64,000 nucleotides of DNA from Eledone cirrhosa. Its lineage: Eukaryota. Both the position numbers and the translations under genes were made by a program. Of the stretch, positions 8,460 to 25,724 are shown one piece after another; the stretch's first letter is position 1; every line of letters starts with the position of its first letter. The stretch is from contig OZ024742.1 in the NCBI GenBank assembly GCA_964016885.1, positions 148,552,001-148,616,000 of the forward strand, given 5' to 3'. Under the pieces are notes generated by a model. That model did no database searches and had not been told where the DNA came from. It was given only the letters and a program-made list of their open reading frames with translations.

Positions 8460-9930
<1,471 letters not shown>

Positions 9931-13008: not shown

Positions 13009-13041
<33 letters not shown>

Positions 13042-13048
<7 letters not shown>

Positions 13049-13174
13049 AAGTTTGTCCTCATCAGTGGCCATCCAACCCTCGTAGGCATTTCGTCGCAAC
13101 GACGGTTGGATGGCCACTGATGAGGACAAACTTTTTCATATGTAACCCATTTGCAGCGCCGCAGCTCCATTATT

Positions 13175-13178
<4 letters not shown>
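13042..13178 (+). mobile_element. Fold-back element in (TA)n carrying the 3' part of the permuted-HHR motif (family B)
   Basis: Inverted arms 13042-13083/13099-13140 plus tail tgtaacccatttgc shared with 21580-21612; GAA-AUGCC-UACGAG-GGUUGG-AUGGCCA-CUGAUGA on the minus arm. Confidence 0.75.
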
Positions 13179-13265
<87 letters not shown>

Positions 13266-13304: not shown

Positions 13305-13615
13305 AGTATTCATACGTGCACACACATATGTATGCACACACATATATGTACATATACATATGTACGTATGGGTTATATCGAATATCAATAATAATATTTG
13401 ATGCGTTTGTAAATAAACCGCCCAATTAACCATGTTTCTATGTCATTACCTTTCATCAGGACTGTATACCTCTGCCAATATGTTCAACGGTTGAAAATAT
13501 ATAGTATTTTCTTAAGTACACAACGGCTGAGTAGCCTCATTTGCATACCGAGTGAGTTACTACTGACCATGCTGTAAACTAAAAATAAATTTAAAATTTT
13601 ATTTCTCGCCCTAGC
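13305..13615 (+). mobile_element. Diverged relative of family A
   Basis: Shares acggctgagtagcctcatttgcataccgagtgagtt and gtatacct..gcca..gttcaacg with 9095-9240. Confidence 0.55.
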
Positions 13616-14463: not shown

Positions 14464-15508
14464 GGAAAAAATGAAACGAAATTTCATTTCTCACTCTTAG
14501 TACGGCTGTTACTTAAATATAAGTATGTCTACGTACATACATATATGTATACATACGTACTGTAGTATGTATATATATATATATACATGCAGAAATATAT
14601 ATATGTACGTATGGATTTACCGAAGATTTATTAGAATGCTCGGTGTGTTTGTAAACAAATATCCCGAATTAAGCCGTACAGTGTTTAGCAACCATCGTTG
14701 CCCTTTTGTTCAACACTAACAAAGGAATGATGTACTAGTTTCAAGCTTATTAGCTATCGTCAGCACCGTTTACCTCCCTGCCAGATGATTGAACGTCTGA
14801 AAGTATATACTTTCCTTATGCATATTAATGGCTGAGCAGCCTAATTTGCATATCGAGTGAGTTAATCGGCCGGGTGCACCGAAAACGATAAACGGAAAAA
14901 ATGAAACGAAATTTCATTTCTCATTGAACTAAAGGGCAACGATGGTTGCTAAACACTGTACGGCTTAATTCGGGAGTTTTTTTTACAAATACACCGAGCA
15001 TTATAATAAATGTTCGGTAAATCCATACGTACATATATATATATGTGTGCATGTATGTATATATATATACATACTACAGTACGACTGTATACATATATGT
15101 ATATACATACTTATATTTAAATAACAGCCGTACTAAGAGTGAGAAATGAAATTTCGTTTCATTTTTTCCGTTTATCGTTTTCGGTGCGCCCGGCCGATTA
15201 ACTCACTTGATATGCAAATTAGGCTGCTCAGCCGTTAATATGCACAAGGAAAGTATATACTTTCAGACGTTCAATCATCTGGCAGGAAGGTATACGGTGC
15301 TGACGATAGCTAATCACAAAAGGGCAACGATGGTTGCTAAACACTGTACGGCTTAATTCGGGATGTTTGTTTACAAACACACCGAGCATTATAATAATGT
15401 TCGGTAAATGCATACGTACATATATATATATGTGTGTGCATGTATGTATATATATATACATACTACAGTACGTCTGTATACATATATGTATGTACGTATA
15501 CATACTTA
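14461..15508. mobile_element. Family A cluster (inverted monomer plus tandem), HHR at 14728-14768 (-)
   Basis: Starts with the same aacggaaaaaatgaaacgaaatttc terminus as 8581; switches orientation at ~14925. Confidence 0.85.
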
Positions 15509-16946: not shown

Positions 16947-18316
16947 TTATAGATTTAAAATATTTCGGAAAGTGGATTTTTGGCGATGTCTGCAAGAACT
17001 GAATAATTCGCTTTTTAAATTAATAGAATTTTGACAGTTAATTATATAAAAAAATTCATCGATGCACAAATGACAGATTCTTGAGAAAACCATATTTCCG
17101 TATGCAGGTGCTTTCGAAATCGTTCCCAAGGTATTGAATAGTCTATATTATTGTCCTTTAAATTCCAAATTAGATGTGAAAGTGAAGTGGAAGATTTTTT
17201 TATCGGACCTATTAAATGTATGTTTGTAGTTGTACCAGCCTTCTTTGAATTTTGTAGAAGTGGCACCTATATAGTTAAATATTTTGTCTCTAGTTTTTAC
17301 TGCGCATTTATAAATTAAGTTTTTGTCTAAGCAATTATTTTGTAAAGGGCAGTTTGATTCAATTCTACAGTTACATTTTCGGGAGTTGTTACTAGAAACG
17401 GTACTATTAGTATGAATATTGTTATTAGAAATATTATTATTGTTGTCTTGGTTTGTTTGGTTAGGGTTTAAATCTAAGTTTCTATTATTAATTCTATTTA
17501 TATTTTGTGCTATGTTCATAGTGGTAGAGTAAGATAGTTTTATAGTATGTCTGTTAAAAATAGATTGGTATCTGTGGGCTTTAGGAAAACATTTATCCAG
17601 TGCTTTGAAAAATAGTTTTGCTACAGGTGTTTTAACGCCTAATGAGAATGGGGGAGAGTACCAAATAATATTTCTAGTTCTAGTTTTTTTGTTTGATTTA
17701 CTATTTAAGTTAAATTGCTTATTATTATTATTATGAATTTTAGGATGATTTATCATGTTATAGTTGTCTAAGTATTTAATTTTATTCGAGTATCCTGCTC
17801 TATGTAAAGCCTTATTGTAATATTCTGCCGTATTATCAAAAATATTTTTATTAGCGGAGATGCGTGAAATTCATTGCTGGACGCTATTGACAATAGTATT
17901 TTTTATATTTCTAGGATGATTAGAATTGAAACTTACGTAATTTAGATTTTCATTAATTTTATGGAATGGATAATAAAGACTTGAGCTAAGGTTTAAAGTT
18001 ACATGATTTTATAATTATTCTCGATTTCTAAATTAAGGTTGTAGTTGTTGAAAAACTGTTTTATGGATTTCTTTTTCCTATTAATTTCACTATTGCTATG
18101 GTTTTCGATTAAAAGTAACATATCGTCACGATATAAACCTCCGGTCATCTCTGGCATTTTTCTATGCAGTACATTAATAAATAATCCAACGAGGTCTGTT
18201 ACTTGAGTCGAGTCAGATGATCCCATAGTAATATCGAAATTGTTTTGTCTGTCAGCTCTTTTACAGAGATGGTTATTAAATTCTATTAGGGTTTTACGCG
18301 CGGTTAGAATGATATT
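16947..18316 (-). pseudogene. Penelope-like element RT plus C-terminal GIY-YIG endonuclease, 5'-truncated and frameshifted
   Basis: FDITMGSSDS..DLVGLF, GLYRDD, RNIIWYSPPFS, IFNRHTIKLSYS, CNCRIESNCPLQNNC, LIY..YIGAT, SLSHLIWNLK, CHLC..E, SELFSSCRH. Confidence 0.9.
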
Positions 18317-21098: not shown

Positions 21099-21740
21099 TA
21101 AAATTAGTCCTTCATCAGTGATCTTCCAGCCTTCATTGGTATTTCATCGCTTTAAAGATCATATACCTCTGGTTGGTGCCAGCAACGGCTAAAGAAATTC
21201 GTTGGGACACGTAAAATAGGGTGAAACGAGCGAGACATGTAAACAGACAAAGATGGTAATGCAACGGAAAGTGGGGAAGAAGGAGTCAAGTCCCTGAAAT
21301 CGATGAACTTAAGTTCTGTGAAATTGTAGACGAGAGATAAAGACCATCCGACCTGGGTGAAATGTGGGCGAGAAAAGGAATTCACACAGGTCAAACGGGA
21401 GGAAGTGAGAGAGAGGGAGTAGCACAGAGTGAGTGAGTGAAAGTGTGAGGAAGAGGCCAGCTGAGAGAGTAACTGGCAGAGGGGCTAAAACGAAAGTGAG
21501 AGATACGGAGAAAGGGGAAGCAGTGAGAAAGAAACAGACGGGTCACAGCGGAGGAAAAAAATAAATATATGAAAATATGGCGTGCTGCGTGGTTGCAAAT
21601 GGGTTACATATGAATAAAATTAGTCCCTCATCAGTGATCTTCCAGCCTTCATTGCTTTAAAGATCATATACCTCTGGTTGGTGCGAGCAACGGCTAAAGA
21701 ATGTCGTTGGGACACGTAAAATAGGGTGAAACGAGAACAT
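21095..21740 (-). mobile_element. Family B element, partial tandem
   Basis: 21095-21230 is repeated at 21611-21735; homolog at 22758-23262; abuts (TA)n. Confidence 0.75.
21107..21176 (-). ncRNA. Candidate non-circularly permuted (pseudoknotted) hammerhead ribozyme
   Basis: CCAACC-AGA-GGUAU-A^UGAUCUU-UAAAGCGAU-GAA-AUACC-AAUGAA-GGCUGG-AAGAUCA-CUGAUGA-AGGAC. Confidence 0.65.
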
Positions 21741-22031: not shown

Positions 22032-22685
22032 ATACATTATGAAGAGAGAAGAAACATTTAGATATAATTAGTAATAAAATGTATCATACCTAAACTGCTC
22101 CTAAATTCCTCGACTACGTAGTTTCGTGGCATAAACAAAAACAATATATCAAAGATATAGAGTCCTTGCGAGGTCTGCCAACTTATCAAGAGGATACCTC
22201 ATTTTACTAGTCTCAAGAACGCGTCTACACGACGTGAGAAAGAATCCCAAAAGGCGGAGGGGGAGATAGTCACGCGATATAACGGTCGAGAAACAGAGCT
22301 AAGCCTCGACCGTTATATCGCGTGACTATCTCCCCCTCCGCCTTTTGGGATTCTTTCTCACGTCGTGTAGACGCGTTCTTGAGACTAGTAAAATGAGGTA
22401 TCCTCTTGATAAGTTGGCAGACCTCGCAAGGACTCTATATCTTTGATATATTGTTTTTGTTTATGCCACGAAACTACGTAGTCGAGGAATTTAGGAGCAG
22501 TTTAGGTATGATACATTTTATTACTAATTATATCTAAATGTTTCTTCTCTCTTCATAATGTATTTTTAACTCTGATACTGGTTCAGTCTGGTTCAAACTA
22601 AATTGGTCTGTCCCAGTCATTCATTGAGCAACATCGGTGAAGTTGGCACCCTTAACTCGCAGTTGGGTGCGGATGCATTCATGTA
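22032..22685 (+). mobile_element. Young fold-back PLE-type element, ~259 bp arms plus tail
   Basis: Arms 22032-22290/22305-22563 look identical by eye, 14-nt spacer, begins at (TA)n. Confidence 0.85.
22401..22488 (+). ncRNA. Type I hammerhead with U3:A8 core
   Basis: UCCUC-UUGAUAA-GUUGGCA..UGCCAC-GAAA-CUACGUAG-UC^GAGGA; mirrored in the left arm. Confidence 0.75.
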
Positions 22686-22719: not shown

Positions 22720-22762
<43 letters not shown>

Positions 22763-22817
22763 AATATGGGGAGAAGAATACTGCATGGTTGCATATGGAT
22801 AACATGTTATAAAATGA

Positions 22818-22887
22818 GTCCCTCATCAGTGATTTGCCAACGGTCATTGGTATTTCATTGCATTAAAAATCATATACCTCACGTTGG
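22818..22887 (-). ncRNA. Candidate permuted hammerhead (family B)
   Basis: CCAACG-UGA-GGUAU-A^UGAUUUU-UAAUGCAAU-GAA-AUACC-AAUGAC-CGUUGG-CAAAUCA-CUGAUGA-GGGAC. Confidence 0.65.
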
Positions 22888-23262
22888 TGCAATAATAACT
22901 AAAATAAGTTATTAGGACAATTAAAACGCGTAAAGCGAGTGAGACAAGTAAACAATACAGGGGAAAGCTAACCGAAGATAGGAAGAAACACAAGCTACAT
23001 AGTTATTCTATCAGTATAAGCTGGGTGAATATATGAGCGAGTAAGAAATAGACCTTTCGCGATGAATCCGATGTAAGAAAGAAGGAGAATCGTTTTCGTA
23101 GCGAACGGGGGGAAGTGAGAAGGGGAGAAACAGTGAGTGAGTGAGTGGAAGTGCGAGGAAGAGGTCAGTAGAGAGAAAGTGTTAACTGACATGACAGAGG
23201 GGACGAAAGAAAGTAAGAGAAACAGAGAGAACGAGGGAGCAGTAAGAGAGAGAGAGAAAAAA

Positions 23263-23351
<89 letters not shown>

Positions 23352-23682
23352 GACTGAAAACAAACTAAGACATCTCTCTAAGAGAAGGCCACGCTCCTGC
23401 GACTTCGTTTGCATCCAATGATGTAGACTAGTTCGTCTTTTTCTGACCAAATGCATTCGATGTTCAGAGAGTGGGATTGGCTCCTCGCAGAGCTTTTCCT
23501 CACTTAAAAAAGCTTCAAGCAAAGGCACCGCTTGATTTATGACATTTTTTGCGATGCATGATAGTGCTGGCCATAGGCATGTCCCTAGCAGGACTAAAAA
23601 GTCAAGTCCGGGATGCTCGTGCTTAAGTATGAAGCGATGGCATTACTTGAAATTGAGTTGCAGCCATCATATATATGATACA

Positions 23683-23752
23683 CTGGAGCTAGACATGTTG
23701 TCTTTAATGCGCAGAAATGTCCATGCTCTCCAGAAGACAACTGATGAAGGGG
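23683..23752 (+). ncRNA. Distant, probably decayed permuted-hammerhead homolog
   Basis: CUGGAG-CUA-GACAU-G-UUGUCUU-UAAUGCGCA-GAA-AUGUC-CAUGCU-CUCCAG-AAGACAA-CUGAUGA: identical spacing with all three helices covarying; G at position 17. Confidence 0.6.
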
Positions 23753-25688: not shown

Positions 25689-25724
25689 TCTTAACGTTTC
25701 GGACGCTAGTCCTTCATCAGAAAA
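25689..25724 (-). ncRNA. Minimal hammerhead in a ~190 bp dispersed element
   Basis: UUUU-CUGAUGA-A-GGAC uagc GUCC-GAAA-CG-UU^AAGA; decayed copies at ~35420-35455 (+), ~45605-45640 (-), ~54955-54985 (+). Confidence 0.7.

Follow-up and report, generated by a model that had tools for sequence, protein, structure and literature searches.

A consensus kink turn in stem III of a predicted non-circularly permuted hammerhead ribozyme carried by an Eledone cirrhosa repeat family

Described systems and the Eledone repeat

Hammerhead ribozymes whose conserved blocks run in the non-circular order S-G-C were defined by Eckert et al. 2023 (PMC10085705). Such non-circularly permuted hammerheads have come from metatranscriptomes and from a small number of metagenome sequences. 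The parts of that paper drawn on here already note that strands are joined directly at the far end of stem III, without explaining it, and leave open how the distant helix ends meet. Kink turns (k-turns), for which folding rules can be read from sequence (PMC5061560 and PMC5689011, in the sections used), contain two adenines that make cross-helix contacts (Huang and Lilley 2016, PMC5061560), and their usual exception is position 2n, which is U in Kt-23 (PMC2790904). Naiads were described by Craig et al. 2021 (PMC8557442) as being without canonical hammerheads; in the passages of that paper used here, eight are marked 'half core', the label of Naiad_Ovul being 'HHR_half_core', and (TA)n targets with tandem and inverted 5′-truncated copies make up the described footprint of Penelope-like elements (PLEs). 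Animal retrozymes have been proposed to be non-autonomous PLE derivatives (PMC7229834; 10.64898/2026.07.22.740005, both as excerpted here).

The locus considered here lies at 22837-22887 of a 64,000-nt stretch of the E. cirrhosa assembly (contig OZ024742.1, positions 148,552,001 to 148,616,000; hereafter the window), on the minus strand, within a repeat unit of about 530 to 540 bp without an ORF (Table 1). A first-pass annotation of the window had read the motif as a k-turn consensus inside stem III of a permuted hammerhead, and that reading is borne out by GA conservation, covariation of the flanking helices, and fixed spacing genome-wide. Judged by its letters, stem III of this copy is interrupted by a k-turn of consensus type, with AAU as the bulge followed by G·A and A·G, and the k-turn pattern is conserved across copies. 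With a probability of roughly two in three, we take the k-turn to be an architectural hinge that would fold stem III so that the predicted ribozyme closes and likely cuts the transcripts of a repeat that is itself likely Naiad-derived.

Comparison with the described systems, each within the parts of the sources cited, places the repeat among known kinds without matching any of them. Like the type-SGC ribozymes (HRIMA-1 and a variant; PMC10085705), it has the S-G-C order, the core letters, a short connection between stem I and the stem II strand, and three mutually crossing stems. Those ribozymes come from metatranscriptomes and none from the genome of a known organism, whereas the repeat has thousands of copies in an animal genome. 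Its stem II partner lies upstream and is not the strand after CUGAnGA, contrary to the block C definition of PMC10085705, so that neither an intact block C with a separate helix tying stems I and II, as in type SGC, nor a stem II opened by G10.1-C11.1 with its 5′ strand directly after CUGANGA, as in hammerheads generally, is found. The k-turn is a further difference, the words kink and k-turn being absent from the text and supplement of PMC10085705 that were searched. With simple k-turns (Kt-7, U4, box C/D, Kt-23; PMC5061560) the motif shares the 3-nt bulge, G1b·A1n, A2b·G2n, and C-G at -1b,-1n, as well as, in some lineages, the U at 2n of Kt-23. Unlike them, it is part of a small predicted self-cleaving ribozyme fold, has both helix ends tied into a junction rather than held by a loop-receptor contact, and has a 3b,3n position fixed to neither the ion-folding nor the protein-dependent type. 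Non-LTR retrozymes (Cervera and de la Pena 2020, PMC7229834; Li et al. 2026, 10.64898/2026.07.22.740005) are likewise non-coding tandem units with one hammerhead each, but theirs are type I hammerheads in units of 150-450 bp, a definition that does not cover a non-circular order in units of about 505-637 bp. Closest are the Naiad PLEs, which share the (TA)n targets and the tandem or inverted 5′-truncated copies, and whose Octopus consensi have the identical layout and k-turn; the repeat differs from them in having no ORF, and the permuted fold is not described for Naiads in the passages of PMC8557442 examined.

The open-access literature gave no paper that links a k-turn with a natural hammerhead and nothing beyond Eckert 2023 on rearranged hammerheads in PLEs, and the papers listed there on L7Ae with hammerheads are, judged by title, methods, engineering, and reviews. 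The family supplies an abundant animal example with deep covariation and names a concrete solution for the meeting of the helix ends, a k-turn in stem III.

Table 1. Parts of the predicted ribozyme and its other copies, in window coordinates; the strings are read along the strand given
Feature	Position	Strand	Evidence or remark
Repeat unit, non-coding, (TA)n-flanked, ribozyme near 3′ end	22723..23263	-	96.6% identity over 551 columns to tandem unit in L022
Pa 5′ strand GUCC; predicted partner GGAC 3′ of core	22915..22918	-	weak support
P0 hairpin in leader	22893..22914	-	predicted at like place in most families
Pb 5′ strand UUGCA, upstream supplier of stem II partner	22888..22892	-	double-sided changes in 4/5 pairs
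NC helix of k-turn, non-bulged strand CCAACG	22882..22887	-	double-sided changes in 5/6 pairs
k-turn 3n, 2n, 1n = U, G, A	22879..22881	-	A1n in 114/121
C helix strand GGUA (22878-22875), U16.1, H17 = A	22873..22878	-	C helix covaries
Stem I 3′ strand UGAUUU	22867..22872	-	double-sided changes in 6/6 pairs
UUAA linker, Pb 3′ strand UGCAA (22862-22858), N11.1 (U)	22857..22866	-	covariation, sequence
Core GAAA (G12-A15.1)	22853..22856	-	sequence
C helix strand UACC (22852-22849), bulge AAU (22848-22846), G1b A2b C3b (22845-22843)	22843..22852	-	
NC helix bulged strand CGUUGG (22842-22837), junction nucleotide C to stem I	22836..22842	-	
Stem I 5′ strand AAAUCA, core CUGAUGA (22829-22823)	22823..22835	-	
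Nucleotide after A9, Pa 3′ strand GGAC	22818..22822	-	
Second complete ribozyme copy, other subfamily	21112..21181	-	k-turn intact; 3b,3n = A·A
Upstream tandem copy of the 21112..21181 subfamily	21628..21690	-	GAAA and C-helix strand deleted
Head-to-head inverted pair of 5′-truncated copies	13038..13191	.	
Older decayed copy	23678..23748	+	2b = C, H17 = G

Conservation of the kink turn and covariation of the helices

The genome searched comprises 3.0 Gb in 1,796 contigs. A ribozyme pattern that leaves the k-turn letters free has 14,756 matches in it and its reversed control has 0, and 13,597 of the 14,756 have the fixed spacing; all 40 scored genome matches to a 111-nt query are 99-100% identical. 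Because twenty 10-kb stretches of the genome yielded one usable copy, sampling moved to pattern matches, nearly all of them on contig C1. The sampling patterns fix linker and core letters, and the constancy of the linker is therefore no evidence. From 170 fixed-register contexts, 36 that were truncated, inverted, or slipped were dropped to leave 134, which keep the fixed register with a 3-nt bulge between covarying helices, and removal of 13 preselected for GA left 121.

Conservation of the GA dinucleotides across copies, the check proposed along with the initial reading, is strong. Position 1b is G in 118/121 copies, 2b is A in 118/121, and 1n is A in 114/121, flanked by C-1b (115/121) and G-1n (116/121), and L1-L3, 3b, and 3n vary freely. 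GA at 1b/2b holds in 143 of 154 copies when the dropped rows are counted in, and in 13,176 of the 13,597 fixed-spacing matches genome-wide, a count dominated by young families. Position 2n is G in 80 copies, U in 38, and another base in 3, so the standard G·A/A·G arrangement is present in 75/121 and the form with U at 2n and the other three letters intact in 32/121. We also placed changes on a midpoint-rooted tree of 97 distinct cores; it was built from 67 columns, with the loop columns left out, and all subfamilies share ancestry. Internal branches hold 0 changes at 1b, 2b, and 1n, whereas nine other unpaired columns average 5.8; L1, L2, L3, 3b, and 3n changed 6, 2, 6, 5, and 7 times, and 2n three times, always between U and G. 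The match to the k-turn consensus thus covers both which positions stay and which may vary, and so exceeds what a generic GA-rich loop would predict. The isolated 51-nt stretch is of unexceptional stability (z = -1.57), and the support is therefore comparative rather than thermodynamic.

At the level of individual copies, the strings first reported are exact for the copy at 22837-22887 (CC-AAU-GA-C-CG opposite CG-U-GA-GG, read on the minus strand) and for that at 21126-21176 (CC-AAU-GA-A-GG opposite CC-A-GA-GG). The copy at 13072-13089 does keep the bulged strand CC-UAC-GA-G-GG, but it is a bulged strand only, because an inverted duplication has replaced the rest, its partner strand included; the minus strand of this pair retains GAAA, the bulged strand, and the core and has lost the S block. 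The plus-strand copy at 23683 has the 6/3 loop sizes ascribed to it, but it had also been said to have lost its GAs, which is wrong in part: G1b and A1n remain, 2b is C, 2n is U, and the cleavage position is G. Among 31 relatives chosen by helix sequence, 27 retain GA at 1b/2b, and this copy has therefore decayed rather than descended from a lineage free of GA. In three runs that are contigs of one study, possibly of the assembly's own sample and not counted as independent, variants fall at 22842 and 22843, and among those listed none is at 22844, 22845, 22879, or 22880. A small subfamily of three copies (L221, L226, L237) has 3 nt inserted between A1n and -1n and so spread with a disturbed k-turn; the insertion is at the place where k-junctions insert a third helix. 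Separately, A2b falls in UGACC (window 22842-22846, minus strand), which we take to fit the DRACH consensus for m6A, and 3b is C in 44/121 copies; methylation at A2b could undo the kink.

The hammerhead blocks run 5′ to 3′ in the order S, G, C, with crossing stems. We measured covariation in a gapless alignment of 53 natural copies across clusters, taken from 122 in-register copies; one slipped copy of 54 was left out, and 8 entered through a GA-containing pattern together with 2 neighbors there. Changes on both sides occur in 19 of 22 proposed pairs and 91.7% of the cells pair, a share that the in-register filter raises. The covariation score is 0.54 versus 0.22 for shuffled alignments, with 0/500 shuffles as high, although relatedness inflates the shuffle test, and controls slid along the alignment reach at most 0.134. 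Compensatory swaps also recur on separate internal branches, as in the six pair-state changes at NC 6b-6n. Four helices covary (stem I, the C helix, the NC helix, and Pb), and around the cleavage site double-sided changes reach 6/6 pairs in stem I and 4/5 in stem III.

Pb, the fourth of these helices, lay outside the original picture of the fold. Its strands are the five nucleotides immediately 5′ of stem III and the five that precede N11.1, with 87.5% of cells paired, so that the strand preceding GAAA covaries with a partner upstream of the S block. We rejected a canonical stem II formed by the strand after CUGAUGA and the strand before GAAA, since the covarying partner is elsewhere and G10.1-C11.1 is rare. 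The opening of the chain therefore lies within the core, between A9 and stem II. The strand after CUGAUGA probably pairs further upstream (Pa), beyond a hairpin; by eye, Pa swaps between families, for example GUCC/GGAC versus UUUUCC/GGAAAA, and a copy's own tail beats foreign tails in just 62/103. A hairpin resembling the leader hairpin P0 is present in the Octopus Naiad consensi.

The core letters CUGANGA, GAAA, and UH are intact in 111/121 copies, of which CUGANGA and GAAA are largely fixed by the search pattern and UH is free of it. U16.1 is kept in 119/121, and H17 is A in 82, C in 37, and G in 2. The predicted cut falls between 22873 and 22872. The pair adjoining the core is less constant: a strict G10.1-C11.1 pair is present in 19/122 copies, 5 have a leader G instead, and N11.1 can pair with either candidate in 99/122. 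Some lineages may therefore cut poorly, and this variability at 10.1-11.1 is the weakest point for the predicted cleavage activity.

The bend in stem III and what it may serve

The need for a sharp bend, argued originally from the adjacency of stems III and I, holds up, with the correction that their junction is one nucleotide (22836) and not zero. From the pairing, the far end of stem III joins the far end of Pb by 0 nt and that of stem I by 1 nt, and stem I and Pb are joined by 4 nt, so three helix tips meet in a second junction. Since both far-end strands of stem III enter other helices, a monomer requires stem III to turn sharply. Stems II and III are coaxial in hammerheads (PMC10085705, PMC4209133, in the parts cited). 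If stem III were straight under such stacking, about 64 Å would separate its tip from that of Pb, and a 50-degree kink five pairs below the core reduces the distance to about 30 Å, axis to axis; these figures are arithmetic with two straight rods, with rise and arm lengths assumed. RNA backbone radii are 9-10 Å, and about 10 Å is then left over. The terminal pair of Pb forms least often (70/97), as fraying would give, and a frayed end pair would help one backbone step to span the gap. On this rod model an intramolecular fold with a kinked stem III is plausible. We envisage that the kink would form in Mg2+ together with the rest of the fold, with protein as an optional partner, and would bring the tip of stem III to Pb, the surrogate for stem II, and to stem I. 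Cleavage after UH would then free RNAs of unit length from tandem transcripts, and a Penelope-type reverse transcriptase would copy these RNAs into (TA)n.

A different role for the kink, and a doubtful one, would be as a docking site for the host L7Ae-family protein 15.5K/Snu13, whose binding would switch the predicted cleavage. The copies at 22837 and 21126 match the U4 k-turn from -2b to 2b, a likeness that we count in its favor, as we do the U at L3 in 82/121 copies and the box C/D combination of U·U plus G-C, predicted to be protein-dependent, in 12/121. In the sections of the sources cited, all k-turn variants tested in PMC5061560 fold upon L7Ae binding, and helper factors have been suggested for slow SGC and PLE hammerheads (PMC10085705, PMC4209133). 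The letters that would betray such dependence are nevertheless scarce: the U4-type G-C at 3b,3n occurs in 0/121; 3b,3n is of an ion-folding type in 53, poor-folding in 15, and intermediate in 53; and -1n is G, the ion-folding choice, in 116/121. G2n, an L7Ae contact (PMC5061560, as excerpted), is replaced by U in 38/121, and what selection keeps is the adenines and G1b, with no protein-dependent signature. The suggestion that the k-turn makes cleavage protein-responsive accordingly finds no backing in the sequence rules, since all three informative positions of the 22837 copy (-1b,-1n = C-G; 3b,3n = C·U; 4b,4n = C-G) are of Mg2+-folding type. Tertiary contacts can fold even impaired k-turns (PMC5061560, in the part cited). 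Judged on these letters, binding of 15.5K to this k-turn family is possible, and the sequences do not appear to have been selected for such dependence. The copy at L035:1476-1551 and its relatives read like box C and box D (AUGAUG and CUGA, with U·U at 3 and G-C at 4), and by sequence this subfamily is the best candidate for 15.5K dependence.

It is also unlikely, on the sequences in hand, that Naiads and their repeats carry a fully caged hammerhead, with all three reverse-order joins and the chain opened in the core between A9 and stem II, whose k-turn in cephalopods binds 15.5K/Snu13 and so gates cleavage. Were it true, an animal genome would hold thousands of copies of a small ribozyme switched naturally by a protein, and binding of 15.5K would tie a retroelement ribozyme to a spliceosome and snoRNP protein.

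Less probable still is a strand-swapped dimer in tandem transcripts, in which the stem I/Pb junction of one copy would receive stem III of the other and the k-turns would do no more than help to close the two-copy ring. The swapped arrangement satisfies every pair, tandem copies 505-637 bp apart are common, and metazoan PLE hammerheads have been reported to be dimeric (PMC4209133, in the passage cited); moreover, one Naiad consensus with identical connectivity has just a 1x2 loop in stem III, which fits a dimer better. Nevertheless, a single copy contains both strands of every helix and no helix is self-complementary, an intramolecular fold agrees with the invariant 23-nt spacing and the constant place of the kink, and natural SGC ribozymes cut as single copies during transcription according to the portion of PMC10085705 used here. 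A folded but non-cutting RNA, with the GA-rich loop structure acting as a 3′-end recognition element for a retrotransposon protein, would account for the variable 10.1-11.1 pair adjoining the core and for the placement of the motif shortly before the 3′ end, which the repeat shares with Naiads, but is improbable given that H17 toggles between A and C six times on internal branches and never becomes G, that CUGANGA (most letters of which are pattern-fixed) varies there at N7 alone, and that truncated copies begin at the predicted cut.

These truncated copies offer a hint that the predicted ribozyme cuts. In a subfamily with C at H17 in 13/13 intact copies, 13 genome matches, representing 12 events because two matches are one palindromic event, begin in (TA)n exactly at the predicted cut, and at the one control site, a neighboring TA with longer TA microhomology, there are 2 matches, of which 1 is a true truncation; 10 of the 13 cut-site matches and both control matches were inspected. 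The numbers are small, and TA microhomology is available at the cut too. A number of inversion junctions likewise lie no more than one base from the predicted cut. The excess of copies starting there (12 versus 1) points, as a hint from genomic sequence, to cleavage activity. As a separate observation, L272 has three short tandem repeats running from the predicted cut to stem I, the first of which begins at the cut.

Relation to Naiads and other elements of the window

The insertion habits of the family are those of a PLE. Same-strand neighbor spacings cluster at 505-637 bp, with tandem copies common, 19 neighbor pairs are inverted, and (TA)3 lies within 150 nt 3′ in 152/170 contexts, in a genome that is itself TA-rich. 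The repeat is likely non-autonomous and derived from Naiad-type PLEs. The 3′ ends of the Naiad_Obim and Naiad_Ovul consensi (PMC8557442, File S5, read by eye, as are the other Naiad ends below) show the whole layout. The leader has its hairpin, Pb spans 6 bp and closes on C11.1 with a G of the leader, the 3-nt bulge of stem III (AAU or AGU) precedes a GA that faces GA on the other strand, and 23 nt lead from GAAA to CUGA as in E. cirrhosa, with helix sequences that differ. Five other kinds of Naiad 3′ end in the passages of that file examined have the S-G-C order and the upstream stem II partner with other breaks in stem III: three near-identical consensi have a 7-nt bulge, and the remaining kinds have a bulge of 5 nt, a side hairpin, a 3-nt bulge lacking GA/GA, or a 1x2 loop alone. 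Nematode Naiads around Naiad-Nbra have a related C-S-G order. Since other Naiads use other bends, the layout does not require a k-turn; the same order with varied breaks therefore makes the layout widespread in Naiads, as represented in the passages of File S5 examined, and the k-turn the cephalopod solution to the bend. This suggests that Naiads, described without canonical hammerheads, may have reverse-order ones, in which case the argument that ribozyme loss aided Naiad spread would change. Many of the Naiad consensi in these passages show, by eye, complete reverse-order hammerheads near the 3′ end, either S-G-C with the upstream stem II partner or, in nematode families, C-S-G.

Searches of the genome for an autonomous partner with the ribozyme found none: reverse transcriptase motif searches gave 0 matches and 3 decayed ones, and a protein search for the Naiad reverse transcriptase gave 83, all decayed, those listed besides the query being 36-73% identical and most having stops. 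No ribozyme stood beside decayed Naiad reverse transcriptases at 30 loci and in 20 downstream stretches, and no PLE ORF lay upstream of eight older ribozyme copies. Rfam gave 320 matches over the whole window, of which the 150 listed are microsatellite-driven miRNA models and two unrelated weak matches; within 22770-23250, at E up to 10, it gave 3 matches and no hammerhead, as expected because the order is non-circular. Scans with the ribozyme pattern returned 1 metagenome match, a chance one within a bacterial gene, and 16 viral matches with no stems by eye.

In a minus-strand frame from near 17870, the window holds a 240-aa piece of a Penelope-type reverse transcriptase thumb and GIY-YIG region; long PLE ORF pieces are likewise present in L069 and L078, and GIY-YIG pieces lie beside L011, L081, and L105, where their membership in the element is putative. 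At window 25691-25720 (minus strand), CUGAUGA, a short stem, and CGAAAC follow in ordinary order and resemble a minimal type I PLE hammerhead, and a similar stretch is found in L206. Another repeat family has CUGACGA or CUGAUGA in a constant context (window 8913-9180, 9588-9707, 13430-13549, 14734-14853, and 15210-15329), partly in inverted pairs, and may carry a different hammerhead-like motif. Finally, a near-perfect palindrome of about 250 bp per arm, centered near 22300 (window 22061-22563), is unrelated to the ribozyme repeat.
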